The position numbers and the translations under genes were made by a program. Source: Planctomycetota bacterium (lineage in GTDB: Bacteria; Planctomycetota; SZUA-567; H5-PLA8). From it: a stretch of DNA of 64,000 nucleotides. The stretch covers positions 1,223,316-1,287,315 of the forward strand of contig JAOSKN010000003.1 of the NCBI GenBank assembly GCA_027493525.1, written 5' to 3'. This document shows, one piece after another, positions 8,038-45,825 of this stretch. The notes under the pieces were generated by a model. That model saw only the letters and a list, made by a program, of their open reading frames with translations, did not search any database and was not told the DNA's origin. The first letter of the stretch is position 1, and each line of letters begins with the position of its first letter.

Positions 8038-8216
8038 AGTAATCAGTAATCAGTAATCAGTAATCAGTAATCAGTAATCAGTAATCAGTAATCAGTAATC
8101 AACCACTGCCACTGCATGTCAAGAAATCCCAATTCTGTTCACTGTTCACTGACCACTGATCACTGTTCACTGTTCACTGACCACTGTTCACTGTTCACTG
8201 ATCACTGATCACTGAC
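8038..8216. repeat. Inverted pair of heptamer arrays (AATCAGT)x~9 / (ACTGTTC, ACTGATC)n
   Basis: Seen directly at 8038-8101 and 8135-8216. Confidence 0.9.
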
Positions 8217-9394: not shown

Positions 9395-10123
9395 CTACGC
9401 AAAGAGCGCCGATCCCACCCGCACCATCGTCGCGCCTTCCTCCACCGCCGCCTCATAGTCCTGCGTCATGCCCATCGATAACTCGAGCAGCGGCGCCGGC
9501 GCCCAGCCTTGCGCGTTGGCCTCCTCCAGCAGCGCCCGCAGCCGCGCGAAGACCGGGCGCGCAACCCGCTCCGCGTCGTCCCCGTGCGGCGCCATCGCCA
9601 TCAAGCCCGCCACGCGGCACGGCGCGCACGCCGCCGCCTCGCCCAGAAACCCGCGCAGTTCGCCCGGCGCCAGCCCGTGCTTCTGCGCCTCGCCGCTCAC
9701 GTTCACCTCCGCCAGGCAGGGGACCTCCGCCAGCCCGCGCTTGCGCGCCTCCCGCGCGATCTCGCGGAGCAGCCGGCTCGAATCCACCGCGCCCAGCCAG
9801 GCGTAGTCGCGCAATGCGTATTTGACTTTGTTCGTCTGGAGGTGCCCGATGAAGTGCCAGCGCGCCCCGGCCGCGGCAACCTCGCCGCGCAGCGCCTCGA
9901 GCTTCTCCCGCGCGTCCTGGATCCGGTTCTCCCCCAAGTCGCGCACGCCCCCGGCCAAGAGCGCCCGGACCTCCGCCGCGCCGACGTACTTCGTCACCGC
10001 GATCAGCCGCACCCCCGCCGCGTCGCGCCCGGCCCGCGCCGCCGCCGCGCCGATCCGCGCCCGCACCTCCGCCAGGTTCCGCGCGATCCGCTCGGGTTCG
10101 ATCGAAGGAAGCCGCTCCGCCAT
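9395..10123 (-). CDS. yggS: PLP homeostasis protein YggS
   Basis: LIAVTK, GENRIQ, WHFIGHLQTNK, LSMGMTQDY and VRVGSALF motifs. Confidence 0.96.
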   Translation of the reverse strand: MAERLPSIEPERIARNLAEVRARIGAAAARAGRDAAGVRLIAVTKYVGAAEVRALLAGGVRDLGENRIQDAREKLEALRGEVAAAGARWHFIGHLQTNKVKYALRDYAWLGAVDSSRLLREIAREARKRGLAEVPCLAEVNVSGEAQKHGLAPGELRGFLGEAAACAPCRVAGLMAMAPHGDDAERVARPVFARLRALLEEANAQGWAPAPLLELSMGMTQDYEAAVEEGATMVRVGSALFA

Positions 10124-10174
10124 GCTGGGAAGGTAATCGCTCGTCCGTACACGGCAAACGGTGGATTCGGAATC

Positions 10175-10495
10175 GTACCGCGAGCGTCCCGCCCGCTCCA
10201 CGTGCCACGGGTCAGCGAAGCCGCCCCGTGCCTTTCGTAGCGCCGGCGTCCTCGCCGGCTCGCGCGGGCGTCCCGCCCGCCGTGCCACGGGTCGGCGAAG
10301 CCGCCCCGTGCCTTTCGTAGCGCCGGCGTCCTCGCCGGCTCGCGCGGGCGTCCCGCCCGCGCGTCTTTTCGTTCCCCCATACCGCGAGCGTCCCGCCCGC
10401 CGTGCCACGGGTCAGCGAAGCTGCCCCGTGCCCCCGTAGCCCCGGCGTCCTCGCCGGCCTTCTTCCGTACCGCTCCCCGCCGTGCCACGGGTCGG
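10175..10495. repeat. REP cluster
   Basis: Four CGTGCCACGGGTC-type hairpins interleaved with GTAGCGCCGGCGTCCTCGCCGGC units. Confidence 0.9.
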
Positions 10496-10497
10496 TT

Positions 10498-10555
10498 GCG
10501 TCGTAGCCGAAGTAGAGCGTCGTACGCGTAGTAGAGGGGCATCGTACCCATAGTC
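10498..10555. repeat. Array of three degenerate 17-bp units (consensus GCRTCGTAGNCGTAGTA)
   Basis: Units at 10498-10514, 10517-10533 and 10539-10555; same family as 15337-15421. Confidence 0.85.
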
Positions 10556-10589
10556 TGGACTGGCGCGCCGGACTTGGTATGCTGCCGTC
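10556..10589 (+). promoter_or_regulatory. Putative leaderless promoter of RHS cassette 1
   Basis: TGGACT-16 nt-TATGCT-6 nt-ATG; identical geometry at 15422-15455. Confidence 0.55.
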
Positions 10590-11807
10590 ATGGTGGCGCG
10601 AGCCGAACCCCTGCGCAGGCGTGAACTTGAGTCCGCTGAGTGGCTCCCTTGGCGTCGTAAGCGAAGCGCTGAAATCCACCACTCAAGCACAATCTATCAG
10701 GCCAACTGGTTGACCTTTACCATCGGCGGGCGCAGGTTCTTCCTGTCGCGGTATCGTATCCAATGCCCCGAGTTGGGCATCTTCCTGAGCCGAGACTTCC
10801 TGCCGTACCCAAACAAGTACAGGGCGTGGTCGAATAATCCCGTGGGGCAGGTGGATAGGGACGGATTGGCTTCAACTGATACACTTACAGGATATCACCT
10901 TGACATATCGTTGTCTGGATTGCGGCCAGAAGTCAGAATCGAAATTGCCAAGAGATGGCTAGATTCTGCCGAACAATGGATCAATTTTTATAAGGACGAC
11001 CTAGAACAAGCAACCAAATTTGGCATAACTAACTTGACAAGCCATCAAGAATCACTTCATCAAGCAGAATTAGAGTACGCCAGAAGAAGGCAGAAATTCC
11101 GAGAAATCTTAAGGGATGCTCTCAATGACTTTGCCCAAAGCGAGGATAAGCGTGTACGCGACGAATACGAAAGAATAAGATGCAAGAAGGTTTGTGAGTG
11201 CATGGAGGACGCTCTCTTGCTATTCTTTGAGGCTAATAGGGCAAGGCGTAACGACCCTGAATGGAACAATGTTCTCCAAGAATTCTTGACTGCCGGAGGG
11301 GATAAAATTCGCAATGACTTTATTGTGGCAGTTGCGCTGACAGTGGTTTCAGCAGGGGTACTTGCATTTGCAAAAGCACCAGTTGTTCTAGAATCGACCA
11401 TTGCCGTCGGGAGTACGGTTACGAGAACTGCCTTATTGGGCCACAAAGCTGCGCTTGCGGCTGAGGCGTTAGAGATTGGCCTGGGAGGCCTTAAAATCTA
11501 CAATATGCAGGATCTAACTCGTACCATTTCGTCGGTTGAAGATTTGGGGACATTGGATACAGGAGTTATAAACAAACTTAATGGAATAAAGCCAGGCCTC
11601 GGTGATAGATATAATGCCTATTGGCGTAAGTCAATCCATGGAGGTGTTTTCAATCTTAAGCAATTGCGGGAGCGTCTACGGGATTGCGACAATAGTCCAA
11701 GTCGATTACTTGGCGACGATAGACGGAGCGAAATTATACGCAATCTCACGGAGGCCGAACAGTCCGAGTTGAGAGATTTGCGGAAGGAGTACGGATGCGA
11801 TAGGTAG
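10590..11807 (+). CDS. Short RHS-core tail + C-terminal toxin domain (helical, with a hydrophobic segment)
   Basis: RIQCPELGIFLSRDFL...YRAWSNNPVGQVDRDGL matches the RHS core end (PxxxxDPxG-like). GC drops abruptly after it. Confidence 0.8.
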   Translation: MVARAEPLRRRELESAEWLPWRRKRSAEIHHSSTIYQANWLTFTIGGRRFFLSRYRIQCPELGIFLSRDFLPYPNKYRAWSNNPVGQVDRDGLASTDTLTGYHLDISLSGLRPEVRIEIAKRWLDSAEQWINFYKDDLEQATKFGITNLTSHQESLHQAELEYARRRQKFREILRDALNDFAQSEDKRVRDEYERIRCKKVCECMEDALLLFFEANRARRNDPEWNNVLQEFLTAGGDKIRNDFIVAVALTVVSAGVLAFAKAPVVLESTIAVGSTVTRTALLGHKAALAAEALEIGLGGLKIYNMQDLTRTISSVEDLGTLDTGVINKLNGIKPGLGDRYNAYWRKSIHGGVFNLKQLRERLRDCDNSPSRLLGDDRRSEIIRNLTEAEQSELRDLRKEYGCDR

Positions 11808-11826
11808 GCTAATGAGAAATTGATAC

Positions 11827-12288
11827 ATGCCCGAGCTTGGGAAGGTGCTTTTTCTTGTGGTGGTAACAGGAGCAATTGTTCTGATTGCTTATGGATTATA
11901 TGAGGGATCGAATCTTATAATTGCATTGGGTCTCGTTTACCTGTTCAGGTCCATCTATCGTTTGGGCACAAGAAGAGACTTAAGTAAAGAGCATGATACT
12001 TCTCGGGTCAAGAGCATTTCGCCTAAGTTTCATCTTTCAACTCTACTTGCGTGTGTTTGTGCATCTGCATTTTTCCTTGGAGTTGGGGTTTGGTATTGGA
12101 AGAAGATTACCTTTCAGGAAAACGTGGCTGATATTTTAGTGGTAATAATCCCAGGGGTATCGATAGTCATATTATTGGGGGTTTACCTTGAAAAACGTGT
12201 GACGGCCCTGCATCGCCCCAGCGACCCGCCTGTAGGGGATGTAGCGGCCCAGGCGACTGTAAAGGATGAAAAGGAGTCGAAAGCGTGA
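11827..12288 (+). CDS. Putative membrane immunity protein (about 4 TM)
   Basis: AT-rich, directly downstream of the RHS-CT; internal FHLSTLL motif. Confidence 0.7.
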   Translation: MPELGKVLFLVVVTGAIVLIAYGLYEGSNLIIALGLVYLFRSIYRLGTRRDLSKEHDTSRVKSISPKFHLSTLLACVCASAFFLGVGVWYWKKITFQENVADILVVIIPGVSIVILLGVYLEKRVTALHRPSDPPVGDVAAQATVKDEKESKA

Positions 12289-12348
12289 AGATGTGGAACG
12301 GACGAAACAACTGCGGCCGCACTTCTCACGCACGGATACGGCGAAGGG
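12241..12348. repeat. Conserved ~110-bp cassette 3' block, copy 1
   Basis: Near-identical to 18373-18481. Confidence 0.9.
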
Positions 12349-12953
12349 CGTATGTGTCAAAAATGTTCGTGAGGCGTAAACAGTCGTCGTCGCAGGAGGT
12401 TGAACGAGATTGCCCCAAGGACCCCGCCCCATGACCCCGCCGCCCATCGAGACGGTCTCGGTCGAGCGGCAGGACGGGCGGTGCGTCGTGGTCGTCAGGC
12501 GCGGCGGGATCGAGGCCACGGGCGCGGACCAGGACGAGCAGACGGCGCTCTTCGCGGCCCCTGGGTTCCGGCGCTCATCCTGCGCGGGCCGCTTCGAGCG
12601 CGTCCTGGACCTGGGGGGCTGTTCCGGGCGGGTGGCCGGGAGGAAGGGCGCCAAACAGCAAGCGACCGTTCACTTGCTCCTTGCCGATGCGCGTTCGATG
12701 GAGCTGGAATCTTCCGCAAGCACGGAGGCTTTCGAGACCGGGAACTCCTGCGCGCGAACGATTGGATGGAAGCGTGAGCGCGAGCGGACGCCTCCCAGCA
12801 CGGAGCAAGTCAACCGCCCTTGCTCCGTCGCACCCGCTCCTGGCCACCCGCAGTTCGTCTCTTGCTGTATTCCGTTTGCAGTTTGCCGTTTGTTTGGAAT
12901 TTGATTCTTGCCGTTTGCAGTTTTCCGTACGCAGCTTGAATCTATTAAACTCG

Positions 12954-13799
12954 TTACTCTTTCGCCTCCGGCGCCAGCACCTTCGCGCCCTCCTTGATCC
13001 GGTGGTTGAACGGCGGCCGCGCCAGGATCTTCTCGAGCGCCTGCCGCACCAGCGGCTCGGCCTCCGCGCGCCACGCCGCCTCCAGCGCCGCCTGGTGCTC
13101 CTTCCGCGCGACCTTGTCCAGCGCGTCGGCCGCCATCCGCCGCACCAGCGGGACCGCGGCGCTGCGCAAGCACCCCAGCAGCGCCGGCGCGGCGGCCGGC
13201 GTTCCCGTCTCGCCCAGCGCGCCGAGGTACGGCAGCAGCGCCCCGGCGTCGGCCGCCTGCAGCGGCGCGCGGAGCTTCTTCTGCTCGTTCTGCAAGCCCA
13301 GCGCGATCCGTTCGGCCGCCCTGACCCGCTGCTCCTCCGGCAGCCCCGCGGCCAGTTGCGCCAGCGTCACCGCCGCCTTCCGCCGCACGCTCGGCTCCTC
13401 CGAATCCAGCAGCCCGAAGACCGCCTCGTACGCCCCGCCCGCCTTCGCCAGCCCCGCCGCGTGCAGCGCCGCCAACTGCGCGCCCGGATCGGCCTCCCGC
13501 TTCAGCAGCTCCGGCAGCCGCTCGGCCGCAAGCTTCGGGTCCAGCGCCGCCAGCAGCTCGACCGCCTCTTTGCGTACCTTCGGATCCGCGTGCCCCAGCA
13601 GCCGCGCCACCCCCGCCGCCGTCCCCGCCTCGTCCGGGATTTTCGGCGCGGGCGCGGGCGCCGGCGCCGGATCGAGCGGCCGCTCCGGCGCCCCCGAACC
13701 CGCCCCGCCCGCCGCCCCGCCCCGCAGCCACAGCAGCGCGAAGGCCAGCGCCAGTATGAAGCCGAACCCCGCCGCCGCCTTCCAGATGTTCGCGTCCAT
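12954..13799 (-). CDS. Membrane-anchored HEAT-repeat protein
   Basis: N-terminal TM, Pro-rich linker, and repeats such as DPKVRKEAVELL, EPSVRRKAAVTL, PLVRRMAADAL. Confidence 0.85.
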   Translation of the reverse strand: MDANIWKAAAGFGFILALAFALLWLRGGAAGGAGSGAPERPLDPAPAPAPAPKIPDEAGTAAGVARLLGHADPKVRKEAVELLAALDPKLAAERLPELLKREADPGAQLAALHAAGLAKAGGAYEAVFGLLDSEEPSVRRKAAVTLAQLAAGLPEEQRVRAAERIALGLQNEQKKLRAPLQAADAGALLPYLGALGETGTPAAAPALLGCLRSAAVPLVRRMAADALDKVARKEHQAALEAAWRAEAEPLVRQALEKILARPPFNHRIKEGAKVLAPEAKE

Positions 13800-14155
13800 C
13801 CGTGCCCCCTTGCACCTTCGTTCGCAGTATGCCACGCGCCCCGAGCCTGTCGAATGCCTCAGCGCCCAACCCCGCGTGCCACGAGTCGGTACTCCGCCCC
13901 GTGCCCCGATTCCACGTCATGCCACGGGTCGGTACTCCGCCCCGTGCCCCGATTCCACGTCGTGCCACGGGTCGGCGCAGCCGCCCCCTGCCCCGCCTTT
14001 CCAGCCGTTTGCCGTTTGTTTGGAATTTGGTTCTTGCCGTTTGAAATTTGTTTGGCTCTTGGTTCTTCTAATTTGGTTCTTCCCGCCTCCCTGGTTCTCG
14101 CCGCCGCCCCGCGCCCCCGATTCGCAATTTGCCCTGTACGTCCCCCGGCCACCGG

Positions 14156-14191
14156 TGTATGTACTACAATACTGGTAGTATGCTACATACA
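14156..14191. promoter_or_regulatory. Candidate operator: inverted repeat TGTATGTA-N20-TACATACA
   Basis: AT-rich inverted repeat upstream of ATG 14217. Confidence 0.45.
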
Positions 14192-14216
14192 GGACTTCAT
14201 AAGGAACTAACATACC

Positions 14217-15152
14217 ATGCCTTACAAGATCACATTCATCGCGTGCGGCCTCGCCGCCGCCCCCCTCTTCGCCGGCCAAGCTGCCTCTTCTATGCCGGCC
14301 CTCAAGCCGTTTCCCGAACAAGGCGTCTACGAGCGCGACGGGAAGCGCTACGAATGCGGCCTCTATCCCGGCGGCAAGAACGAGATGCCCGAGGCCCATC
14401 GCAAGGCCGGCGAACGCCTCGCCGCGCAGATCGTCCCGCTCAGCCCGGCGGGCCAGCCTGACCCCAACGGCAGGATCGCGCTCCTCGCCGCCGGCCATTC
14501 CAACCCGCGCGAATACTTCGGCGCCTACGCGCCGTTCATCGCCGCCGAAGTCCAGAAGGGCGCGCTCCATCCCAAGGTCGCGCTCGCCTCGATCTGCAAG
14601 GGCGGGAAAATGTGCCAGGATTGGGCCAAGGAATGCCGCGCCCAGACGCCCGCCGGCGGGCCGAAGGAGACGCAGGTGCTCTTCCTGCTCACCTCCTATC
14701 ACAACGCCTCCCGCGGCGCGACCGAGAAGAAGCAGCCCGAGGCGCTCAAAATGAACTTCGAGGCGCGCACGCAGGCGATGAAGGAGGATCTCAAGGTCAT
14801 CGTCCAGGCCTTCGCCAAGACCTATCCCCAGCTCAAACTCGCCTACCTGGGGTGCGACACCTGGCGCGGAAACTCCGGCCTCGAACCGATGGTCTGGGAA
14901 GAAGCGTTCGCCTTCAAAGCGCTCATCGAAGAGCAGCTCAAAGGCGATCCCGAACTGGCCTTCGAAGGCCCCAACCGCAAAGCGCCCTGGCTGGCCTGGG
15001 GCGGCTACATCTGGGAGCACAATCCGCCCAAGGATCGCTTCGCCGCCGACGGCGTCCATCCCAGCGGCTCCGGCAAAGCCTTCGCCTACGGCCGCTGGCA
15101 CGAGCTCCTGACCAAGGACAGCACCGCCGCGCCGTGGTTCCTCAAACGCTGA
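14217..15152 (+). CDS. Secreted SGNH/GDSL-like hydrolase
   Basis: Signal peptide, block I-like AAGHSN, C-terminal DGVHP. Confidence 0.65.
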   Translation: MPYKITFIACGLAAAPLFAGQAASSMPALKPFPEQGVYERDGKRYECGLYPGGKNEMPEAHRKAGERLAAQIVPLSPAGQPDPNGRIALLAAGHSNPREYFGAYAPFIAAEVQKGALHPKVALASICKGGKMCQDWAKECRAQTPAGGPKETQVLFLLTSYHNASRGATEKKQPEALKMNFEARTQAMKEDLKVIVQAFAKTYPQLKLAYLGCDTWRGNSGLEPMVWEEAFAFKALIEEQLKGDPELAFEGPNRKAPWLAWGGYIWEHNPPKDRFAADGVHPSGSGKAFAYGRWHELLTKDSTAAPWFLKR

Positions 15153-15336
15153 ACCCCGCGCCCCGCCGTGCCGCGGGTCGGTACTCCGCCCCGTGCCCCC
15201 GCACCGCCTCGTCCCATGTCGTGCCACGGGTCAGCGAAGCTGCCCCGTGCCAGCGCAGCCGCCCCGAGCCTTTCGTAGCGCCGGCGTCCCGCCGGCCATA
15301 CCGCCCCGTCCCGGCGGCAAGTGCCATCTCGCCCTG

Positions 15337-15421
15337 GCCTCGTAGCCGTAGTCGCGTCGTATGCGTAGTAGCGCCGTAGACGTAGTGGCATCGTAGGCGT
15401 AGTAGCGTCGTAGCCAAAGTA
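15337..15421. repeat. Array of five contiguous degenerate 17-bp units
   Basis: GCCTCGTAGCCGTAGTC|GCGTCGTATGCGTAGTA|GCGCCGTAGACGTAGTG|GCATCGTAGGCGTAGTA|GCGTCGTAGCCAAAGTA. Confidence 0.92.
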
Positions 15422-15455
15422 TGGCATACGGCCGGTAACAGGGTATGCTGCGCGC

Positions 15456-16456
15456 ATGGTGGCCGTGGCCCAACCCGAGCGGGCGTGGAGCGTTACCCGC
15501 GCCGAGCGGCGCCCAGCAAGCGCCCCCGTCCCGTCCGCGCCCAGTCCGGCGCATGGGCCGGCGAGCTCATCTACCAGGCCAACTGGTTGACCTTTACCAT
15601 AGGGGCCAAGCGGTTGTGTTTGAGTCCTACTCGTGTTTATGACCCGGAGACAGGGAGGTTCCCAAGTAGAGATCCGCTCGATACTTATATACTTCTTAGT
15701 GGCCACAGCCCAAATGATTCATCCGCTATATTTGAGGGTGGCATTCCTGGAGCAATGCTATTAGCCCGAAGGACTCAATTATTGCAAAAATATGTTTTCG
15801 TAGATAATTCACCAGTTCTCTTAGTTGACCCGGTGGGATTGTACTGCTGTGTAACTGATTTTACCATAATTGATACAGGGTATATCAAGTATCCGCCTGC
15901 TCAGCCTGGACAAACGTACCCTTATCCCCTTCGTAATTGGGCAGGAGGAAGTATTAATTTTGTTGGAATTGTTGCGGCCGGAAAAAATAAGGGAAAGCTT
16001 TACTATGAATCTACCGTGCTGTTTAAGGTCTTAGTCAAACTGAGCGATGGATCAGATCCCGAAGACTGTTCATTTGTGCGTGAATGGAAAAACGAAATTA
16101 TTGCGGAAAACAACATTGTCAAGAAGGATCCATATGGCATTGAGATTCCACTAAAGGCTATAGTTGTGGGAAAGACAATTGAAATTTATGATAACCCTGG
16201 AATTATTTTTGTGGGGAGGCGTGCCGTTGGCTTGGAGCTAACTAGTGATTGGCGTTTAACCGTAAAGGATAAAACTGGGCGAATACCGGAATCCTGGATT
16301 GATTATAGATTGGCGATATATAATACAATTCTTGCAAAAAGTTCTGGAATTGAGGAAAAGGGAAAGAAGACAAGTGAACCCTGCCCATTATCCATTAAAG
16401 AAGCCTTTGGATGTGACGTAAACCGAATCGTTAATGTTCCAGAATACGGGAAATGA
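15456..16456 (+). CDS. Short RHS-core tail + C-terminal toxin domain (cassette 2); leader ATG 15456 is out of frame with the core ORF 15485..16456
   Basis: IYQANWLTFTIG shared with cassette 1; RVYDPETGRFPSRDPL...YVFVDNSPVLLVDPVGL; AT-rich CT. Confidence 0.8.
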
Positions 16457-16871
16457 GCGATGAAGCTTCAATATCGCCTGAGTACGCTAATTGGAATTGT
16501 CATTACTGCGGGGGTGGCGATTGGAATTACGGTCTATATTTATCCGTATTATTTGGCTAAGAAATCAATAGATAGGTATTGCGCTATGCCTTTGGATACA
16601 TTAGTCACTGGCTATGTATTGCGCAATAGTCAATCTAGAAGGGAGCCCATGGGATCTAAGTTTAGAGACGAAGTTGGAGCCATAAATAAATATTCGCTAT
16701 GGTCTTTAGAGTGTGCCCTGCAAAGTAAATCTCCTCAGGTTAGACGAAATGCTGCATACATTATTGCATGGGCGGGCTCCGTTGATCCTGAGACTCTTCA
16801 ATTCTTGAACGCCAGGATACAAAGTGAGAATGATAGCTTGGCTCGAGGTTTGATGGTTTGGGCATATATGC

Positions 16872-18253
16872 GGGGTATTGTCAAAAGTTGTGGATGGCGA
16901 GAGGAGAATCATGCGGCGTTTTCCTTGATGCCGTCCACGAAACGGATGCCTCGAATCACGTCTTCCAGCAGCTTATGGCCGTTTAGTTTCCGCCAGCGCT
17001 TCTCGGCAACCTGAGCGAGTTTGAACACCATCGCCAGCGTGGCTTGGCGCGTGCCGCAGCCTTTGGTCTTGTGCGTCCGCAAGCGCACCGTGGCGAAGGC
17101 GGACTCGATCGGGTTCGTCGTTCTCAGATGCGCCCAATGCTCGGCGGGGAAATCGTAAAACGCCAACAGCGCGTCTTGGTCCTTGAGCAGACACTCGACC
17201 GCCTTGGGATGCTTGGCTTGGTACGTCGCCACGAACGCATCGAACGCTGCCTGCGCATCCTTGCGCGTCTGGGCCATCCAGATCTGATGCAATTTCTCCT
17301 TGGCTGAAGGCTGTAATTTCTTGGGCAGGCCGTTCAGCACATTCATCGTCTTGTGAACCCAGCAACGCTGCACCCGGCACTTGGCAAAGGCTTTCGGAAG
17401 CGCCGCCCAGAAGCCCAACGCACCGTCGCCGATGGCCAGGTCCGGGCCGTTCTTCAAGCCGCGCGCTTTCAGGTCCGTCAAGACCTCAAGCCAGGACTGT
17501 TCGCTCTCCCGCACGCCGTCATGCACGGCGACCAGTTCCTTCTTGCCGTCGGCCGTGGCCCCCATGACCACCAGGATGCACGAGCGGTCTTCCTCCAGGC
17601 GGACGTTGAAGTAGATGCCGTCCACCCACAGATACACGTAGCGCTTGCCCGCCAAGGACCGCCGGTTCCAGCTCGCGTACTCGGAGGCCCAGACGTCCTT
17701 GATCCGCGTGATCGTATTGGCCGAAAGCCCCTTGGCTTGCGGCCCCAACAGCGCGCTCAGCGCCTCCGGAAAGTCCTGCGTGGAGATGCCCTTCAAATAG
17801 AGCCACGGGATCAGGTCTTCCATGCTCTTGGTCCGGCGCAAATAGGGCGGCAGAATCTTGCTCGTAAAGGGCTCTCGCTCGTCCGAGGGGCGCCGGTCTT
17901 CCACGCGCGGCTGCGCTACGCGTACGGCGCCGATGCCCGTCTGGATCGTTCGTTCCGGCAGGTAGCCGTTGCGCACCACCACGCGATGCCCGCGCTCGTC
18001 CCGCGCCCGCTCGAAACGCTGGAGGTATTCTTCCACCTCCGCGTTCAGCGCCGCGGCTAGCAAGCGCTGCGCGCCTTCGTTCAGGATGTGAGTAAGCCCG
18101 TCCCGGCTGGCAGCTTGCGGATCGAGCGAAACCGTCGTACCCTGGCTCATGTGGCGTATCCTCCTGCCCTTGTGGGCGTGGTGGCCTTAGATCTCCACCA
18201 AGGATACGCCGCACTTTTCTTTCTCGCTCATCCACAACTTTTGACAATACCCC
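16872..18253 (-). mobile_element. IS256-family element, copy 1 (1382 bp)
   Basis: 25-bp TIR GGGGTATTGTCAAAAGTTGTGGATG; 9-bp TSD CATATATGC. Confidence 0.97.
16909..18150 (-). CDS. IS256-family (mutator-type) transposase
   Basis: RNGY, YLWVDGIY, DGALGFW, QRCWVHK and RTTNPIES motifs. Confidence 0.97.
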   Translation of the reverse strand: MSQGTTVSLDPQAASRDGLTHILNEGAQRLLAAALNAEVEEYLQRFERARDERGHRVVVRNGYLPERTIQTGIGAVRVAQPRVEDRRPSDEREPFTSKILPPYLRRTKSMEDLIPWLYLKGISTQDFPEALSALLGPQAKGLSANTITRIKDVWASEYASWNRRSLAGKRYVYLWVDGIYFNVRLEEDRSCILVVMGATADGKKELVAVHDGVRESEQSWLEVLTDLKARGLKNGPDLAIGDGALGFWAALPKAFAKCRVQRCWVHKTMNVLNGLPKKLQPSAKEKLHQIWMAQTRKDAQAAFDAFVATYQAKHPKAVECLLKDQDALLAFYDFPAEHWAHLRTTNPIESAFATVRLRTHKTKGCGTRQATLAMVFKLAQVAEKRWRKLNGHKLLEDVIRGIRFVDGIKENAA

Positions 18254-18372
18254 CATATATGCGTAACTCTAGTAGCGATGCTGGAGCGACTCCCTATATT
18301 GACATAGAAGGAAATTGGCACGTGGAAGAGCTACCGAATTTTTAACGACAGTAATTTGTTGCTGTAGCGCGT

Positions 18373-18481
18373 GTAGCGGCCAAGGCGACTGTAGAGGATG
18401 AATAGGAGTCGAAAGCGTGAAAGATGTGGAACGGACGAAACAACTGCGGCCGCACTTCTCACGCACGGATACGGCGAAGGG
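18373..18481. repeat. Conserved ~110-bp cassette 3' block, copy 2
   Basis: Near-identical to 12241-12348. Confidence 0.9.
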
Positions 18482-18930
18482 TTTTCGAATTGCCAAAGAG
18501 CCACGACTTGCGAAAAGATCACGGGCGGGTGGCACGGGCGCCGAGAAGACACACGATGAAGGCAAGACTCCTTGATTGTGGTGCCACTGCGCTGCGGTAC
18601 TCCGCAGCCAGTGCGAGGCGCGCACCCCGGATTCAACTCGCACGTAGACCCGAATGAAGTAACTTGAGTGGGCCACGCGACCCGGGTCGCGTGGCGCTGG
18701 CTGCCAACGGTCGCAGCCAGTTGCGCCAGTTCCTGAAAGGCACAAGGCGAGGCGAAGAGTGACAGTGCTACCAGCCAGGGGATTTTTTATTGATGCACAA
18801 GGAAAAGCAATACTCAATTGGCCAAGTGCTAGTTGCGGCGGCTCCCAGCAGTTCAAGGACGCCACAGAAAGATGGAATAAACTGGAGGATCAAGATGCAA
18901 TTCTTACATACTAGCATGGCTCTTACAATG

Positions 18931-20312
18931 GGGGTATTGTCAAAAGTTGTGGATGGCGAGAGGAGAATCATGCGGCGTTTTCCTTGATGCCGTCCACGAA
19001 ACGGATGCCTCGAATCACGTCTTCCAGCAGCTTATGGCCGTTTAGTTTCCGCCAGCGCTTCTCGGCAACCTGAGCGAGTTTGAACACCATCGCCAGCGTG
19101 GCTTGGCGCGTGCCGCAGCCTTTGGTCTTGTGCGTCCGCAAGCGCACCGTGGCGAAGGCGGACTCGATCGGGTTCGTCGTTCTCAGATGCGCCCAATGCT
19201 CGGCGGGGAAATCGTAAAACGCCAACAGCGCGTCTTGGTCCTTGAGCAGACACTCGACCGCCTTGGGATGCTTGGCTTGGTACGTCGCCACGAACGCATC
19301 GAACGCTGCCTGCGCATCCTTGCGCGTCTGGGCCATCCAGATCTGATGCAATTTCTCCTTGGCTGAAGGCTGTAATTTCTTGGGCAGGCCGTTCAGCACA
19401 TTCATCGTCTTGTGAACCCAGCAACGCTGCACCCGGCACTTGGCAAAGGCTTTCGGAAGCGCCGCCCAGAAGCCCAACGCACCGTCGCCGATGGCCAGGT
19501 CCGGGCCGTTCTTCAAGCCGCGCGCTTTCAGGTCCGTCAAGACCTCAAGCCAGGACTGTTCGCTCTCCCGCACGCCGTCATGCACGGCGACCAGTTCCTT
19601 CTTGCCGTCGGCCGTGGCCCCCATGACCACCAGGATGCACGAGCGGTCTTCCTCCAGGCGGACGTTGAAGTAGATGCCGTCCACCCACAGATACACGTAG
19701 CGCTTGCCCGCCAAGGACCGCCGGTTCCAGCTCGCGTACTCGGAGGCCCAGACGTCCTTGATCCGCGTGATCGTATTGGCCGAAAGCCCCTTGGCTTGCG
19801 GCCCCAACAGCGCGCTCAGCGCCTCCGGAAAGTCCTGCGTGGAGATGCCCTTCAAATAGAGCCACGGGATCAGGTCTTCCATGCTCTTGGTCCGGCGCAA
19901 ATAGGGCGGCAGAATCTTGCTCGTAAAGGGCTCTCGCTCGTCCGAGGGGCGCCGGTCTTCCACGCGCGGCTGCGCTACGCGTACGGCGCCGATGCCCGTC
20001 TGGATCGTTCGTTCCGGCAGGTAGCCGTTGCGCACCACCACGCGATGCCCGCGCTCGTCCCGCGCCCGCTCGAAACGCTGGAGGTATTCTTCCACCTCCG
20101 CGTTCAGCGCCGCGGCTAGCAAGCGCTGCGCGCCTTCGTTCAGGATGTGAGTAAGCACGTCCCGGCTGGACGCTTGCGGATCGAGCGAAACCGTCGTACC
20201 CTGGCTCATGTGGCGTATCCTCCTGCCCTTGTGGGCGTGGTGGCCTTAGATCTCCACCAAGGATACGCCGCACTTTTCTTTCTCGCTCATCCACAACTTT
20301 TGACAATACCCC
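18931..20312 (-). mobile_element. IS256-family element, copy 2 (1382 bp)
   Basis: Same TIRs as copy 1; 9-bp TSD CTTACAATG. Confidence 0.97.
18968..20209 (-). CDS. IS256-family transposase
   Basis: Identical to copy 1 except two N-terminal residues (AASRDG vs ASSRDV). Confidence 0.97.
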   Translation of the reverse strand: MSQGTTVSLDPQASSRDVLTHILNEGAQRLLAAALNAEVEEYLQRFERARDERGHRVVVRNGYLPERTIQTGIGAVRVAQPRVEDRRPSDEREPFTSKILPPYLRRTKSMEDLIPWLYLKGISTQDFPEALSALLGPQAKGLSANTITRIKDVWASEYASWNRRSLAGKRYVYLWVDGIYFNVRLEEDRSCILVVMGATADGKKELVAVHDGVRESEQSWLEVLTDLKARGLKNGPDLAIGDGALGFWAALPKAFAKCRVQRCWVHKTMNVLNGLPKKLQPSAKEKLHQIWMAQTRKDAQAAFDAFVATYQAKHPKAVECLLKDQDALLAFYDFPAEHWAHLRTTNPIESAFATVRLRTHKTKGCGTRQATLAMVFKLAQVAEKRWRKLNGHKLLEDVIRGIRFVDGIKENAA

Positions 20313-20735
20313 CTTACAATGCTGATTGGCATGAGTTTGTTCAGCGCTAGCGTCCTTAGGGCGGAAGATGATAAACCTGTACCCAATAAACTTTCTGACA
20401 AGGAGTTAGTGGCTAAAATCAGGGAAGCGGTAGAAAAGAAAATTGATCCTGAAAAGGTCCAGGAATTTGTGGGAACTAAGCCAACGCTCAGCACTGTTGG
20501 TGACGAAAATACACTAAGATTTAGTCTAGTGACTATTGACTATGAAAATAGGGAGTCGGTTCCAAAATGGGACAAGAGGAAGAATGTCATATATTGGGTA
20601 AGGCCTATAGAATCTAAAAGGACCAAGGTTATTGGCATTTTTTATTTAAAAGACGGTGGTATGCAGATATTTGAAGGTGAAGTAGCCACTCCCGAATGAG
20701 GCAAGTGCATATGAAGCGACCCGGCTGGTGGCACT

Positions 20736-22190
20736 CAATACTGTTCGGCACGATTGTTGCGTGTGAGTCGTTCTCGAAACATTTTTAGCGCGCTTATTTT
20801 TCATTCATTTTTCCAGCCGATGCTTAGCGCATGGAACACCCGGAGCGCTATCAAGGACTCAAGTTCTTCAAGCCCTTGAGCCGGCTCTTGGGCGAACTGC
20901 GCGAACGGCACGCGAATCCCAACCGCACCCTGCATTACGACGAATACCTCATCCTGCTCCTGCTGGCCTACTACAACCCCGTCCTGCAATCCTTGCGCGG
21001 ACTGCGCAAGGCCGCCGGCCTGCCCTGGACCGAGCGCAACCTGGGCCTGCACCGCACCTCGCTGGGCAGTCTTTCCGAGGCCTCGCACGTCTTCGATCCC
21101 GACGGGCTCCGGCGGATCTTCCTGGAACTGGCCGGTCAAGCCCAAGCGCTCGACGCCCCGCCGCGCCCCCAAGGGCTGCCCGAAGACCTGCGCCTGCTGG
21201 CCGCCGACGCCTCGCTCTGGAAACTCCTGCCGCGCATGGCGCGCGCGTTGTACGTCGGACCGCTCACCCGCGCCCGCAAAGGCGCCCTGAAAGGACACTT
21301 CGTCTTCGACGTGTTGCGCGGAGTCCCCGTCGACGCGGCCTTCACCGAAGGCGCGACCGACGAACGGCACGTCCTGCCTAAGCAGCTGCTCGCCGGCGCC
21401 TTTTACCTGCTCGACCGCGGCTACTTCTCCTTCTCCGTGCTCCAAGCCTTTCGCGCCGCGCAAGCCTCGTTCCTCATGCGCCTGCGCGAGGGCCCGTGCG
21501 TGTCGGTCGTGGAGACGCGGGCGCGCTCCGAGGCCGCGCGCGGCGCCGGCGTCGTCAGCGACGAAATCGTGGACTTGGGCAAGGACCCGGCTCGGCGCCA
21601 GCGCGTGCGCGTGGTCCGCGCGCGGCATCGCGCTCCGGCCCCGCGCAACCTGCACCCGCAGCGCAAGCGCGGCAAGCACGCGGCCTACGCGCACGAACCG
21701 CTCGACCAGGAATGGGTGCTCGTGACCGACCGCTTCGACCTGGACGCGGAGTTGCTGGTGGCGCTCTACGCCTACCGCTGGCAGATCGAGACGTTTTTCC
21801 GCTGGTTCAAGAACACCTTGAAGTGCCGGCATCTGCTGGCCGAGTCGGAGAACGGCCTGGCGCTGCAGTTCTACGCCGCGCCGATCGCCACGCTGCTGGC
21901 GGTCGTCCATACCGGGCGCAAACCCACCAAGGGCCTGCTGACGACGCTGCACCTGTACCTGATGGGCTGGGCCGAGTGGCGCGACGTCGAGGAGGAACTC
22001 CAGCGCTGTAAAAGCGCCCGGCCTTGAATGCGCAGCCGTCGTGTCGCCCCACGACCGGCCGCGCCCCGTCATGCCCCAACGCAAACCCGCCGCGCCTCCA
22101 GCCGCCCAAGTCCGAAGCCCTGCCGGCACACACAGGACCGTCTTCTCGCCGAGCCTTCTCACCACGCAAGGCTTGAGCCGAACAGTGTTG
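20736..22190 (+). mobile_element. IS4-family element (1455 bp)
   Basis: TIR CAA(T/C)ACTGTTCGGC; 9-bp TSD GGTGGCACT (20727-20735 and 22191-22199). Confidence 0.92.
20831..22027 (+). CDS. IS4-family DDE transposase
   Basis: AADAS, LDRGY and YAYRWQIETFFRWFK (YREK signature). Confidence 0.93.
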   Translation: MEHPERYQGLKFFKPLSRLLGELRERHANPNRTLHYDEYLILLLLAYYNPVLQSLRGLRKAAGLPWTERNLGLHRTSLGSLSEASHVFDPDGLRRIFLELAGQAQALDAPPRPQGLPEDLRLLAADASLWKLLPRMARALYVGPLTRARKGALKGHFVFDVLRGVPVDAAFTEGATDERHVLPKQLLAGAFYLLDRGYFSFSVLQAFRAAQASFLMRLREGPCVSVVETRARSEAARGAGVVSDEIVDLGKDPARRQRVRVVRARHRAPAPRNLHPQRKRGKHAAYAHEPLDQEWVLVTDRFDLDAELLVALYAYRWQIETFFRWFKNTLKCRHLLAESENGLALQFYAAPIATLLAVVHTGRKPTKGLLTTLHLYLMGWAEWRDVEEELQRCKSARP

Positions 22191-22220
22191 GGTGGCACTG
22201 ACTGAGGTTGGTTTGTGATC

Positions 22221-22483
22221 TGGTGCCACTGCGCTGCGGTACTCCGCAGCCAGTGCGAGGCGCGCACCCCAGGTTCAACTCGGACGGGTGGCACGGGTGG
22301 CGGCCGATGATGGCCTTTACTGGAGTGTGCCACTGGCGGCTTGTCCGCCAGTGCGACGGCCGGCAAGTTAGAGATTGCGATGAAGAGTTGCGCAACATAT
22401 TCTTTGGGCGTGAGAAGGATTGGAATGGATTTCGGCTCGTGCGTTCCATCCAAGAGCACTGGCGGACAAGCCGCCAGTGGCAC
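22221..22483. repeat. REP hairpins, including an inverted REP pair (REPIN-like) at ~22325-22483
   Basis: GTGCCACTGCGCTGCGGTACTCCGCAGCCAGTGC (also at ~18580); GTGCCACTGGCGGCTTGTCCGCCAGTGC and its reverse complement. Confidence 0.85.
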
Positions 22484-22527
22484 ACTTCGGAACCACCCGC
22501 CGTTTAGGCCCTTACCTAGGAGTATTC

Positions 22528-22803
22528 ATGGATCGTAAAGGCTTAAGGCGATGGGCATATTTTCTCTTCCTATTCTTGGAATCTATTAATATCATCCTAG
22601 TGCTGGTCATCCCAAATTACAAAATTAACGATCAGGGCGTATTCTTGGCCCTTTCAATCCTTTCTTCAGGGCTTAGTGCAAAGTTGTTTTATATTCTAGC
22701 CAAAGATTTCCTCATTAGTCGCATTCGCGCCTTGATGATTGCCTTGGCCTTTAACTGTATATTTTTTGGCCTATTTTATTCATACCATTTCCGTTTCAGG
22801 TAA
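22528..22803 (+). CDS. Small AT-rich 3-TM membrane protein (orphan immunity-like)
   Basis: RBS AGGAG; hydrophobic; low GC. Confidence 0.6.
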   Translation: MDRKGLRRWAYFLFLFLESINIILVLVIPNYKINDQGVFLALSILSSGLSAKLFYILAKDFLISRIRALMIALAFNCIFFGLFYSYHFRFR

Positions 22804-23081
22804 GTACTTTCGTATACGCCATAAATGTTCACGTGGCGTAAGCAGCTGATGTTGCAGGCGGTTGAGCTCATGCATATCTCCTCTTGCCCGCAGCGCGTGG
22901 GGGCGGGCGGAGGCGACCCGCCCGCGTCCCGCAGGGACGCCGTGAAAATAGCCCAGCCTTACGAGACTGGGGATCCGGCTCAAAACGGCAAACAACAAGA
23001 ACCAAATGCCAAACAAATAAAGCGTCCCCCTTTCCGATTGGACAGGGGCTAAGAGACTGGCAGCTTGGTTAGCGGGCCGGT

Positions 23082-23861
23082 CGCGGGTGGCCCCCATAAC
23101 CCCGTTATGGGGGCGCCGAAGGCGATGGCAACTTCATGAAAACCAATCGCGATCCTGAAATGCCGGGTTGTCTCCAGGTAAAGCGCGCCTTAAATTTTCG
23201 GCATGGCCTCCACTCGACCACCACGCACGATCTTCGATCTCGAAGGCCATCTGTAGTTCGTCACCTTTTCCTGCTATCGAAAGTTTCAATTCCTGAGCCG
23301 AGACCGCTGCAAGCAGATCGTCCTGACGCACCTCGACCGTTGGGGCTGGCAGGAGCGCGTCGGGGTCGTGGGTTACGTCGTGATGCCCGACCACGTCCAT
23401 GCGCTGCTGCGCCCCGCGGAACCCGGACGCCTGAGTCCGTTCATGCAGCTTTGGAAACGCGAATCAAGCCGGCACATTCACGCCTTCCTCCGTCTGGGTG
23501 ACGGCGCCGCGCCCTTTGGCGCAAGGGTCCGCGACGACGCGGGCCGCGTGCACTGCTGGAACAAACGCTATTATCCCTTCAACGTGTACAGCATGAAAAA
23601 GGCGATACAAAAGCTGGAGTACATGCACCACAATCCCGTGCGGCAAGGCTTGGCGGAGGATCCGTGCGCCTGGGCCTGGAGCAGCGCCCGCTACTGGCAG
23701 CAAGGCATTCGCCCGCCCGTCCGCATGTGCGGGATCGAAGGGTCCTTGCCGTGGGAGCGGAGCGCGAAGCGAGTGCAGGCTTGAAAGGACCGTGGCACGT
23801 TCTTCATGAGGTTGCCATCGGCTTCGCCGCCCCCATAACGGAGTTATGGGGGCCACCCGCG
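23082..23861 (+). mobile_element. RAYT/IS200-like element bounded by ~59-bp inverted REP-type ends
   Basis: 23082-23140 and 23803-23861 are inverted copies, each GTGG + hairpin CCCCCATAAC-x-GTTATGGGGG. Confidence 0.85.
23203..23784 (+). pseudogene. REP-associated tyrosine (HUH Y1) transposase with in-frame TAG at 23254
   Basis: GHL*FVTFSCY, YVVMPDHVH (HUH), YMHHNPVRQGL and WAWSS motifs. Confidence 0.88.
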
Positions 23862-23984
23862 TTTGTTTGGAATTTGGTTCTTGCCGTTTGCCGTTTGAAG
23901 CTTGTTTGGTTCTTGGTTCTTTAATTTGGTTCTTCCCCGCCCTTTAGTTCTTCTAATTTGGAATTTACTAACCCCATTACGCCC

Positions 23985-24013
23985 TTGACACCCTAGACCC
24001 TATCCCGTATATT
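23985..24013 (+). promoter_or_regulatory. sigma70-like promoter
   Basis: TTGACA-17 nt-TATATT. Confidence 0.65.
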
Positions 24014-24022
24014 TCCCGTATC

Positions 24023-25465
24023 GTGGACGCGCGACCCCCTCAGGCCCGTGCCTCACCGCGCGCCCCGCCCGACCTCCCAAGGACACCCCCATGCCCGTCC
24101 CTGCCGCCAGCGCCCTGCGCGCCTCCAGCCCCGCCGCGCCCTTCCGGCTCCCGCCGCCCCCGCCGCGCAGCCAACCCTGCCACGACCTGGGCTTCCTCCG
24201 AAGCGCCCCCGCCCGAAGCCCCCGCCGCGCCGCCCGATCCCGCCGCCGCCTGGATCGAAGCCCTCCCCGAGGCCGAGCGCCAGGAACTCGAGGTGCTCGT
24301 CTACGCATTGCGTTCGCCATCTCCGCGCCACGGGCCGGCGCCCCGCCCCGCGCCTCCCCCCACGCCCCCGCCACCGGTGGCGCGGGCGGCCCGCCCGGTC
24401 CCCGCCGTGCCCCCGGAACCCAGCCCCAAGAACCCGGAACCCGCCCCGCCCCTCTGGCAGCGCCTCGCCCCGCTCCAAGACCGCGGCGCAACCTCTATTC
24501 ACGTTCGTAGACACGCCCTGCACCGCCTCGCCGCCTTCGTGCTCCTCTGGCTCCGCGCCGAGCGCGACGAGGCCGCCGCCGCAGCGGACACGCAAAGCGT
24601 ATTGCCTGCCCGCGAGCCCGGCTACGAACTGGCCGAACTCCTCGGGCTCCCCGAGTCCGCCCTCAACCGCCTCTGCCGCGAACGCACCGGGCAGACCGCC
24701 CGCGAATGGTGGGACCTCCTGCGCGCCCCGGCCCTCGTCGAGGCGCTGAAGGAAGACGCCCGCGCCTGGCTCGACGGCGAGCCCTTCCCGCCGGGCCGTA
24801 ACTCGGACAAGCGCCGGCCGGGCGCCGGGCGGATCCTCCACGCCCTCCAGCGCCGCCGCCGCGAAGCCGGCCGCTCGCGCCAGGAGCGCGCCTGGGCCCT
24901 GGGCTTCCGCAACGCCGCGCGCCTCGACCGCGCCCTGTACCTCGCCGCCGGGCGCACCGCCGCCGCGCTCGACGCCGAAGTCGCCGCCGAGGCGCAGGCC
25001 GGCTGGTACTTCGATCCGGGGGCCTGCCGGCTCTGGCGCGCCGAAGCGCCCGGCGAACGCGAGCGCGAGGCACGCCGTGCAGCTTTTTTAAGCTCGCGGA
25101 CCGGCAGCCTCGGCAAGCCCGGCATCTGGGTCCCGAACCCCAGGCCCGACCCGCGCAACCCGTTTATTTTTGAGCCGCTCACGGACTGGAATTCGGTCGT
25201 AAGCTACTGCCAGCGCAGGGAATTGGACCCCGCGGTGCTGGTGATTCATAATGCGCGCTTCAGCGCCGAGACCCGGCCGGGCAAGGACTTCGGCCGCGAG
25301 GCCGCGCGCTGGCTGGGCTACAGCATGGAGGAAATCGACCGCGCCGCCGGCGCCCTCGACGCCTTCCGCGCCGAGCACGGCCTCGCCCCGGAAGGACGCG
25401 AGGACCTTTTACGCGCCGTCTTCGATAAGAATTACGATCCCGACGAAGATAGATGGAGCAATTGA
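24023..25465 (+). CDS. Protein with Pro-rich N-terminus and a divergent AraC-like double HTH (start uncertain)
   Basis: LAELLGLPESALNRLCRERTGQT and AWALGFRNAARLDRALYLAAGRT. Confidence 0.55.
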   Translation: MDARPPQARASPRAPPDLPRTPPCPSLPPAPCAPPAPPRPSGSRRPRRAANPATTWASSEAPPPEAPAAPPDPAAAWIEALPEAERQELEVLVYALRSPSPRHGPAPRPAPPPTPPPPVARAARPVPAVPPEPSPKNPEPAPPLWQRLAPLQDRGATSIHVRRHALHRLAAFVLLWLRAERDEAAAAADTQSVLPAREPGYELAELLGLPESALNRLCRERTGQTAREWWDLLRAPALVEALKEDARAWLDGEPFPPGRNSDKRRPGAGRILHALQRRRREAGRSRQERAWALGFRNAARLDRALYLAAGRTAAALDAEVAAEAQAGWYFDPGACRLWRAEAPGEREREARRAAFLSSRTGSLGKPGIWVPNPRPDPRNPFIFEPLTDWNSVVSYCQRRELDPAVLVIHNARFSAETRPGKDFGREAARWLGYSMEEIDRAAGALDAFRAEHGLAPEGREDLLRAVFDKNYDPDEDRWSN

Positions 25466-25594
25466 CATGTAGCCCAACCAAGTAATTACTACGTGACTCA
25501 ACCCCTGCCGCCGCTCATGCCGAGCCGCCTCAACTCATTGTTCGCTGTTCCCTGTTCCCTGTTCACTGTTTACTGCTTACTGTTCACTGTCCCC

Positions 25595-40469: not shown

Positions 40470-40842
40470 AAATTCCAAGTGCCCAGGAACCAAGATGCCA
40501 AACAAAACGGCAAATCACAAACGGCAAGAACCAAGATGCCGGGCAAAACGGAAAATCTCAATCGGCAAGAACCAAGATGCCAAACAAAACGGCAAATCAC
40601 AAACGGCAAGAACCAAACAAACGGCAAACGGCAAACAGCAAACGACAAACAGCAACCGCGAACGAATTGGGATTGAACCACATCAAAAACTCTGCGGCCC
40701 TCTGTGTACTCTGTGCCTCTGTGGTGAGCTGTTCGCTGTTCGCTGTTCGCTGTTCGCTGTTCGCTGTTCGCTGTTCGCTGTTCGCTGTTCGCCGTTCGCC
40801 GCGTGCCGTTCATTCCGCATTCCGCATTTTGAATTCCGCATT
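40470..40842. repeat. Mosaic heptamer arrays: (CAAACGG/CAAGAAC...) then (CTGTTCG)x~10 and (TTCCGCA)
   Basis: Seen directly; related mosaics at 12865-12925, 14005-14080, 22980-23020 and 23860-23970. Confidence 0.88.
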
Positions 40843-45618: not shown

Positions 45619-45825
45619 GTTCCGAGTTCCGAGTTCCGAGTTCCGAGTTCCGAGAGACGAGAAATCAGATCGAAAAGCTTGAAAGGCCCGCATGATCCAC
45701 GCGGAAGAATCGTTCCATCAAACCGGAATAAAGGACAGGGTGAGGTGCATCTATCCGCACCAGGAATCCGGCACTCGAATCCCGGGTCTCGGGTTCGGGT
45801 CTCGGGTTTCGGAACTCGGAACCTA
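45617..45825. repeat. Inverted pair of heptamer arrays (GAGTTCC)x5 / (GGAACTC-like)
   Basis: Seen directly at 45617-45655 and ~45765-45825. Confidence 0.8.

Follow-up and report, generated by a model that had tools for sequence, protein, structure and literature searches.

Condensed YD-repeat cores arrayed in front of RHS-type toxin cassettes in a Planctomycetota genome

Why should pieces of the YD repeat, the motif of the RHS protein core, be packed into short antisense arrays directly in front of two RHS-type toxin cassettes? The question is raised by a window (the whole stretch of DNA analysed, 64,000 nucleotides (nt), positions 1223316-1287315 of contig C3) from the genome of a Planctomycetota bacterium, here G000, which is 7.46 Mb long, has a G+C (GC) content of 67% and is assembled in six contigs. 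All positions below are window coordinates. The arrays are a real, sequence-specific and lineage-restricted oddity on an unusual variant of the RHS toxin cassette. The explanation that we favour, although it falls just short of being probable, is that they may be RHS-core debris, which would have been relocated, inverted and multiplied by slippage between cores and would have no dedicated function. The units, the starts that follow them and the cassettes are listed here; scores refer to a position matrix built from the 58 YxYD cores in long open frames of the RHS regions of G000.

10498-10555, sense on the minus strand: array A, units A1 (10498-10514), A2 (10517-10533) and A3 (10539-10555), scores 18.7, 20.0 and 17.9
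15337-15421, sense on the minus strand: array B, five contiguous 17-nt units (B1-B5) with an exact 17-nt period, scores 14.4, 18.7, 12.8, 19.8 and 17.5
10652-10668, minus strand: lone antisense YD-core unit within the leader frame of cassette A, where it is read as WRRKRSA, score 15.2
10556-10592, plus strand: promoter-like stretch and start of cassette A (TGGACT, 16 nt, TATGCT at 10578-10583, 6 nt, ATG at 10590, beginning MVA...)
15422-15458, plus strand: promoter-like stretch and start of cassette B (TGGCAT, 16 nt, TATGCT at 15444-15449, 6 nt, ATG at 15456)
10590-11807, plus strand: open reading frame (ORF) of cassette A, 405 amino acids (aa), with a short leader, a divergent RHS core end (IYQANWLT...RIQCPELGIFLSRDF...VDRDGL) and a low-GC toxin-like region of no known family
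11827-12288, plus strand: immunity-like ORF of cassette A, 153 aa, of no family, assigned by position and low GC alone
15456-16456, plus strand: cassette B, with a leader, an RHS core end (IYQANWLT...RVYDPETGRF...VDPVGL) and a toxin-like region
16460-16871, plus strand: immunity-like ORF of cassette B with a weak HEAT_2 match, cut at 16872, where the inverted repeat of the first Mutator-family insertion sequence (IS) starts

The nucleotide consensus of the 58 YxYD cores of G000 is GACTACGCCTACGACGC (x-Y-A-Y-D-A). Reverse complements of the nine units score 12.8-20.0 against the matrix, genuine cores of G000 score 17.8 on average (standard deviation (sd) 2.6), and random genomic 17-mers match such scores at a frequency of 5e-6 to 5e-5. 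Each 17-mer holds the five-codon Y-x-Y-D core and the first two bases (GC) of the following codon, mostly Ala. The preliminary description of this DNA had read the units as antisense codons of the YD motif, and its unit positions and minus-strand readings were reproduced (YFGYDA, YYAYDA, HYVYGA, YYAYDA and DYGYEA in array B; DYGYDA, YYAYDA and YFGYDA in array A; RFAYDA for the lone unit); all nine indeed score like the genome's own RHS cores. Derivation of the units from RHS/YD-type sequence is thus firm. The related claim of codon-like variation stands in part. The eight array units carry 18 departures from their consensus, confined to 7 of the 17 positions (P=0.0003), and the YD score with these 18 actual differences is 17.5, versus 11.1 (sd 1.7) for equally many random changes. 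The differences are therefore compatible with the YD motif, and seven of the 18 are synonymous (P=0.002), but the bias to third positions (8 of 18, P=0.11) is not significant; all of these P values are overstated because the units share common descent. Matches to the YD-repeat family PF05593 in G000 all lie outside the cassettes, at 129-136 kb of contig C3, 1.94 Mb of C2 and 0.81 Mb of C1.

A chance origin of the 17-nt units is excluded. With up to three mismatches allowed, the window contains eight matches to the unit consensus versus 0.08 expected, and none of 100 shuffles reached eight; array units make up seven of these eight matches, and A3 differs from the consensus by more than three mismatches. 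In the whole G000 genome, 95 matches were found at the same threshold, clustered solely at arrays A and B, and array B is the genome's sole cluster of at least four CGTAG motifs spaced by no more than 22 nt. Tandem Repeats Finder reported 15340-15413 with period 17, 4.4 copies and 78% matches (87% with period 34), and 10498-10536 with period 19; in array A the steps from start to start are 19 and 22 nt. The two-unit tandem pattern was present in one of 401 Planctomycetota genomes scanned, which is G000 itself. A looser two-core pattern matched in three of 62 genomes of the class, no more commonly than a reversed-pattern control, so that the G000 arrays alone stand out. A distant-mode search of the plasmid collection with 15320-15480 matched nothing. 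When compared by eye, A1 resembles B5 (16 of 17 bases), A2 resembles B2 (16 of 17) and A3 resembles B1 (14 of 17), and the plus-strand order of unit types is I-II-III in array A and III-II-IV-II-I in array B. Unit types common to both arrays yet reordered point to an array that is probably old and rearranging. A second sample of the same bioreactor study, the only other one covering the arrays, yielded a contig set that spans both of them with zero letter changes.

Both cassettes have the same layout of an ATG, about 110 nt, IYQANWLTFTIG, an RYYDP-like stretch, DPxGL, low-GC sequence and a small second ORF. The 59-residue core end also terminates long RHS proteins, which bear PF05593 or continuous YD repeats, and on this likeness the cassettes are to be regarded as RHS tips; the proposed linkage of the arrays to RHS C-terminal (RHS-CT) cassettes was borne out, and each array precedes one. 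Scores to TIGR03696 are below the cut-off of 32.5 bits (20.7 bits in cassette A and 26.8 bits in cassette B), with only model positions 33-76 and 33-53 covered, respectively; DPxGL-type motifs are present as VDRDGL in A and VDPVGL in B. Pfam revealed no family in either cassette ORF, YD repeats of PF05593 included, and a sequence search of the PDB with both cassette proteins gave no match. The GC content of the toxin-like region of cassette A is 44-55%. The order of toxin and then immunity ORF is as expected and the GC is low, but the toxin-like regions have neither a family nor a structure match, and both roles are predicted ones. Only A and B bear this core end in G000; no full-length RHS gene with it was found in the genome, and no RHS gene of any kind in the window.

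Each cassette has its own translation start. The ATG at 10590 is in frame. The ATG at 15456 is shifted by one base against the frame of the cassette B body in the window, where the ORF can be called from a GTG at 15485. The run of C at 15518-15522 has five C in the window and six in a contig from another sample of the same study, in which ATG 15456 is in frame; the five-C run reflects either misassembly or a true frameshift polymorphism. The -10-like box lies 6 nt 5' of the ATG and is conserved in G007, a genome of the same family and a sister genus. Parts of the toxin and immunity sequences, at 11637-12130 and 15829-16984, were found with 0-2 changed letters in biofilm metatranscriptome contigs from a different study. 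Salt-marsh and biofilm DNA runs hold toxin B without the G000 leader, from 15633 and from 15565 onward, although contigs cannot show absence. With toxin parts matched in samples from other habitats, the toxin modules circulate beyond the source strain.

Upstream of both arrays lie tagged palindromes of the repetitive extragenic palindrome (REP) type, on the same strand as the cassettes:

10179-10497, plus strand: cluster of GTAG-tagged REP-like palindromes with 80-nt repeat units (families D2, D3 and D5), directly 5' of array A
15150-15336, plus strand: REP-like cluster (families D2, D3, D5 and D6), 5' of array B

The palindromes are laid out as GTAGC GCCGGCG loop CGCCGGC, and the flanking 80-nt repeats are tagged palindromic REPs by definition. 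There are 109 copies of GTAGCGCCGGCG in the G000 genome, and the commonest 6-mer ahead of the GCCGGCG hairpin is CGTAGC (79 of 506). A further cluster of GTAG-tagged REP palindromes is situated at 13864-13995.

The leaders of A and B are homologous from the REPs via the array and start into the core end, with mean column identity of 76%. The two leaders are thus paralogues, and the equal placement of their arrays counts as one inherited fact, not two. That both arrays end exactly at a -35-like hexamer, as originally described, holds for the geometry in both leaders, but the hexamer match is poor (4 of 6 and 2 of 6 bases, counted by hand) and the two arrays are paralogous copies. From the last unit to the -10 box there are 22 nt in both copies, while the spacer itself agrees at 11 of 22 bases (hand count). 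In a scan for sigma-70 promoters, neither leader promoter was among the listed sites. The arrangement GGTAnnnT-N6-ATGGT(G/C)GCG occurs in the sister genus as well, and a G(G/A)GTAnnnT box 6-7 nt 5' of the ATG recurs before cassettes in three genera (10574-10592 and 15440-15458 here; loci L060, L026, L027 and L072). This recurring box is probably a -10 box, with leaderless starts typical of the class, and ATG 10590 is a likely leaderless start. A minus-strand ORF through the arrays was considered and rejected: an in-frame ATG (within CATG) lies 12 codons before the first unit in both copies, but neither a -10 box nor a ribosome site was seen 5' of it, and its equal spacing is accounted for by the plus-strand promoter geometry.

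The sister-genus genome G007 encodes five cassettes of the G000 type, all of them open frames of no more than 428 aa, and no full-length gene with the cassette core end was found in it. Three of the five begin at contig ends, share a single collapsed leader contig of 671 nt and diverge only from the core end on. This shared leader consists of GGGGTAGAAT, 6 nt and ATGGTCGCG, followed by four sense YD cores at +26, +55, +85 and +120 from the ATG, with scores of 16.5-20.5 and in frames 2, 1, 1 and 0. The cores are spaced by 29-35 nt and only the last one is in frame; reverse-complemented, one of them is identical to the array consensus of G000. No stop interrupts the ATG frame across the four cores, and it continues into YYTYD...ENLIYQANWLT, as in full-length RHS proteins. 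At a matrix threshold of 11, each of the remaining two leaders contains two cores, and one leader differs from the shared one by a 30-nt gap whose two ends fall inside adjacent cores. Among 13 loci of this or a related core-end type, at least two cores within 250 nt upstream are present in two G000 and two G007 leaders only; the nine other loci have at most one core, far upstream. Condensed cores are accordingly a trait of this leader family in two genera. Their placement differs: in G007 the cores are sense and 3' of the start, in G000 antisense and 5' of the promoter, with one antisense unit inside leader A. Protein P0006, from another source, starts with MVALAEP and has a short leader similar to those of G000. 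In real RHS proteins the YD cores are spaced by about 21-27 aa (by eye, in P0007).

Two routes by which the leaders might have arisen were considered. An inversion hinged on the palindromic CCATGG start was rejected on our own reading of the sequences, as the -10 box and the first approximately 15 nt past the ATG agree better with G007 when the orientation is kept. A full-length gene starting with MVA might have lost its interior by deletion, but this idea is unsupported: three long RHS genes of relatives start with MAIQ, MGEV and MHEE and are without the start motif.

According to the favoured explanation, the cassette family would be a small group of self-promoted RHS-tip toxin/immunity modules with YD-core pieces in the 5' leader. 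In G000, a block of cores would have been inverted and placed just 5' of the promoter, and then multiplied and reshuffled in the 17-nt register by slipped-strand pairing or unequal crossing-over between cores. The arrays would then be leftovers from collapse and rearrangement of RHS-core sequence beside the cassette. Among the observations, the YD-type identity of the units, their linkage through paralogy, the restriction to this lineage and the one core-to-core indel are common ground; inversion and relocation, a history of slippage and the lack of a function are what the explanation would add. So exact a period suggests that slippage or unequal exchange kept to one register, and in the 30-nt indel between cores of G007, core slippage is seen at work. 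The sense cores in the homologous G007 leaders and the reordered units of A and B support the explanation too, as do a genome rich in intergenic tandem repeats (1311 arrays genome-wide), the narrow distribution and the absence of the surrounding island from same-genus genomes. A further point in its favour is that no inverted partner, joint or length variant was found at the arrays in a 17-kb repeat comparison, among local inverted repeats or in sample contigs. Of the earlier suggestions, the one that the units are scars or samples of RHS genes comes nearest to it.

Several points weigh against it. Neutral decay of a slipped repeat would not place 18 differences on 7 of 17 positions and retain the YD score; such position-specific conservation is compatible with constraint on the DNA itself or with units that arose independently. 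Core density exceeds that of real RHS proteins 2-4 times, and deletions at random would have removed cores as well. In G007 the cores persist in three frames of a single uninterrupted ORF, and with such mixed frames, peptide-level selection cannot account for their retention. No simple rearrangement converts the G007 layout to that of G000, because promoter and ATG keep their orientation. That the last unit lies exactly 22 nt from the -10 box in both copies may be a sign of a role linked to the promoter.

Such a role is what a cis-regulatory array would have. In that case the units would bind a putative activator or repressor controlling the leaderless cassette promoter, with the invariant plus-strand positions GC..CGTA..C..AGT as contacts and the sense copies of G007 as operators. 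The array adjoins the -35 position, the 22-nt distance is kept over a spacer of which only half the bases match, variation is limited to 7 of 17 positions, and cores retained across mixed frames in G007 speak for constraint on the DNA and not on the peptide. We nevertheless consider regulation unlikely. There are just two examples, which are paralogous, and no further cluster of sites exists in the G000 genome; the 17-nt period does not keep phase with the helix, the two genera differ in where the units lie and how they point relative to the promoter, and the likeness to YD cores would be a coincidence at about 1e-5 per unit. The island offers no candidate regulator nearby, only transposases, a HEAT-repeat gene and one unknown ORF, and the tandem activator-binding array once proposed for this locus gained no activator from these genes. 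Rather less probable still are recombination adaptors, clustered YD cores that would serve as short homologies to any RHS gene for capture or exchange of toxin and immunity genes. The units do agree with the core consensus from the RHS genes of G000, the leaders of G007 show exchange between cores, and three G007 cassettes with an identical leader differ only from the core end onward; recombination with cassettes is described as a route by which polymorphic toxin genes diversify (PMC3482391, in the part of it used here). However, full-length genes with the cassette core end are absent from G000 and none was found in G007; the G000 cores are antisense to the cassette, and exchange with an RHS gene could not fuse in frame; in the single G007 leader measured, one of four cores is in frame. 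Seventeen bases with mismatches are fewer than homologous exchange usually takes. Nor was any chimeric junction found, or any joint in population contigs, and the same absences, of a full-length partner in G000 and of a joint or inversion at the arrays, leave the suggested role in CT swapping without a footing. Quite doubtful, too, is the more general proposal that the clustered cores have been selected as a cis element of self-promoted RHS-tip cassettes and retained in the DNA whatever their frame or orientation, as universal short-homology or enzyme-recognition sites; their antisense strand bears the REP tags CGTC and GTAG. If this were true, the cassette could move into or exchange with any RHS gene, and RHS rearrangement would be tied to a defined sequence signal.

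An origin from REPs was weighed because the plus-strand units read CGTC-GTAG-..-GTAG and might be by-products or substrates of Y1 (RAYT-like) transposases. GTAG-tagged REPs are abundant in G000 and directly flank both arrays on the same strand, and 22 Y1_Tnp matches were found in the genome, one of them in the island. Families with GTAG/CGTC tags are described, Planctomycetes included (Di Nocera et al. 2013, PMC3733652, as far as the part used here goes). The units are without a palindromic stem, the defining feature of a REP, and the tags follow automatically from antisense ...C TAC GAC G... codons; the sense cores of G007 have no REPs beside them and continue in frame into genuine RHS core sequence. 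We regard this origin as very unlikely. The smallest probability, hardly more than negligible, is given to an antisense RNA, a plus-strand transcript whose five anti-YD units would pair to many sites on RHS messengers. Complementarity to the YD-core consensus agrees with it, but no promoter or terminator frames the array, array A has no upstream plus-strand gene for read-through, the units of the sister genus are sense and inside the mRNA leader, and an Rfam search of 9900-17100 on both strands gave nothing at E up to 1. An earlier idea of guide or antisense RNA fared no better in the RNA run, whose contigs cover only 11637-12130 and 15829-16984 and not the arrays, although contigs can show neither absence nor transcription. 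For none of the rivals was direct support obtained, be it a binder, a junction or inversion, or an Rfam family. An invertible or shufflon-type switch was rejected, as no inverted copy of a unit occurs over 17 kb, no joints lie at the arrays and only transposase genes are nearby; a search near the two arrays for local inverted repeats gave just one 11-nt pair, with none within the arrays. Sample contigs also show joints at 10433/15220, 13905/10201 and elsewhere; these fall within copies of REPs and were discounted as repeat artefacts.

Among known systems, the orphan rhs-CT/rhsI and cdiA-CT/cdiI modules are the closest. They are described as a fragment of the core end that stops at the demarcating motif, followed by a variable toxin with an immunity gene next to it; most orphan cdiA-CT modules are without translation initiation signals, and such orphans come after the main cdi genes (Poole et al. 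2011, PMC3150448, in the part of it considered); the corresponding marks of an orphan rhs module, a main gene upstream and no start of its own, were taken by analogy from these cdi orphans. The G000 cassettes are similar in having a core end, a variable toxin-like region, an immunity-like gene, low GC and a place in a variable island with ISs. They differ in not being downstream of a full-length rhs gene with the same core end, in having their own conserved -10-like box and ATG, which are common across genera, and in condensed YD cores that replace the contiguous core. Standalone polymorphic-toxin cassettes are likewise described with the toxin ahead of the immunity gene and with one constant 5' part common to many different C-terminal domains (Zhang et al. 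2012, PMC3482391), and to this extent they resemble the cassettes here. Their G000-type counterparts have a constant part of approximately 35-75 leader residues and about 60 core-end residues, with no trafficking domain, and repeat-core codon arrays beside cassettes are not mentioned in the portion of that paper drawn on here. The REPs that flank the arrays are GTAG-tagged palindromes of the described kind (PMC3733652, same part), and the 17-mers hold both tags, but unlike REPs or bacterial interspersed mosaic elements they have no stem-loop, are tandem and occur at only two genome sites.

Direct-repeat operator and iteron arrays have several similar direct repeats of 17-22 nt abutting a promoter, with conserved and free positions. 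The G000 units differ from these in being contiguous at 17 nt and a codon-level copy of the protein motif of the neighbouring family, with no cognate protein known. Phase-variable simple-sequence repeats do not agree with what was found, as the units are 78% alike and both arrays are identical in the single second sample covering them. The arrays are not REPs, simple-sequence switches or shufflon sites. No account of condensed YD-core arrays turned up in literature searches, in which supplements were outside the scope.

Swapping of C-terminal cassettes is how RHS and related polymorphic toxins diversify, and the known route requires long core-end homology. Here the cassettes start from signals of their own and lack a full-length partner, and the leaders retain only the most conserved 15-17 bases of the YD repeat, packed densely, in mixed frames and in both orientations. 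If this packing was selected, it would point to a new way of regulating or mobilising toxin cassettes. If it is debris, it would be a record of an RHS shell gene collapsing by exchange between its own repeats, and a caution that codon-like variation can persist in non-coding remnants.

The cassettes lie in a strain-specific island. Gene order is shared with two genomes of the same genus up to window position about 10100 and is then lost, the break lying inside a gene with an alanine-racemase N-domain (9395-10408, minus strand), and the right flank of the region sits 550 kb off in the same-genus genome G002. The stretch of about 10100-25500 is therefore a strain-specific island, and the whole of it is absent from the two same-genus genomes compared. 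Its further content is as follows:

12954-13835, minus strand: HEAT-repeat gene
14217-15152: ORF of no known identity
16872-18256 and 18930-20313: two identical Mutator-family ISs
20831-22027: IS4-family transposase gene
23082-23861: Y1-transposase-like gene with 59-nt terminal inverted repeats

Between the two Mutator-family ISs, 18362-18481 copies the end of the immunity-like gene of cassette A and its downstream flank (12230-12348) at 90-100% identity, which suggests a possible third cassette since lost, or a rearrangement. The Y1-transposase-like frame at about 23254-23484 has one internal TAG, and its flanking 59-nt inverted repeats are 93% complementary; ten of the 22 Y1_Tnp matches in G000 are near-identical copies of 155 aa, and the match in the island lies in this frame. 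Repeats rich in GTTTGG/GGTTCTT are situated outside these inverted repeats and also at 12878-12923 and 14004-14081, where they bracket the HEAT-repeat gene. Tandem heptamers (AACGGTG, AGTAATC, CTGTTCA, TCACTGT, GCTGTTC and GAGTTCC) occur between genes at 1-61, 8038-8101, 8135-8214, 25535-25590, 40728-40799, 45617-45654 and elsewhere. The period of the 1311 tandem arrays of G000 is 7 in 281, 14 in 87 and 21 in 213 of them; similar intergenic direct repeats of heptamers are described for Beggiatoaceae (PMC4679880, in the part of it consulted).

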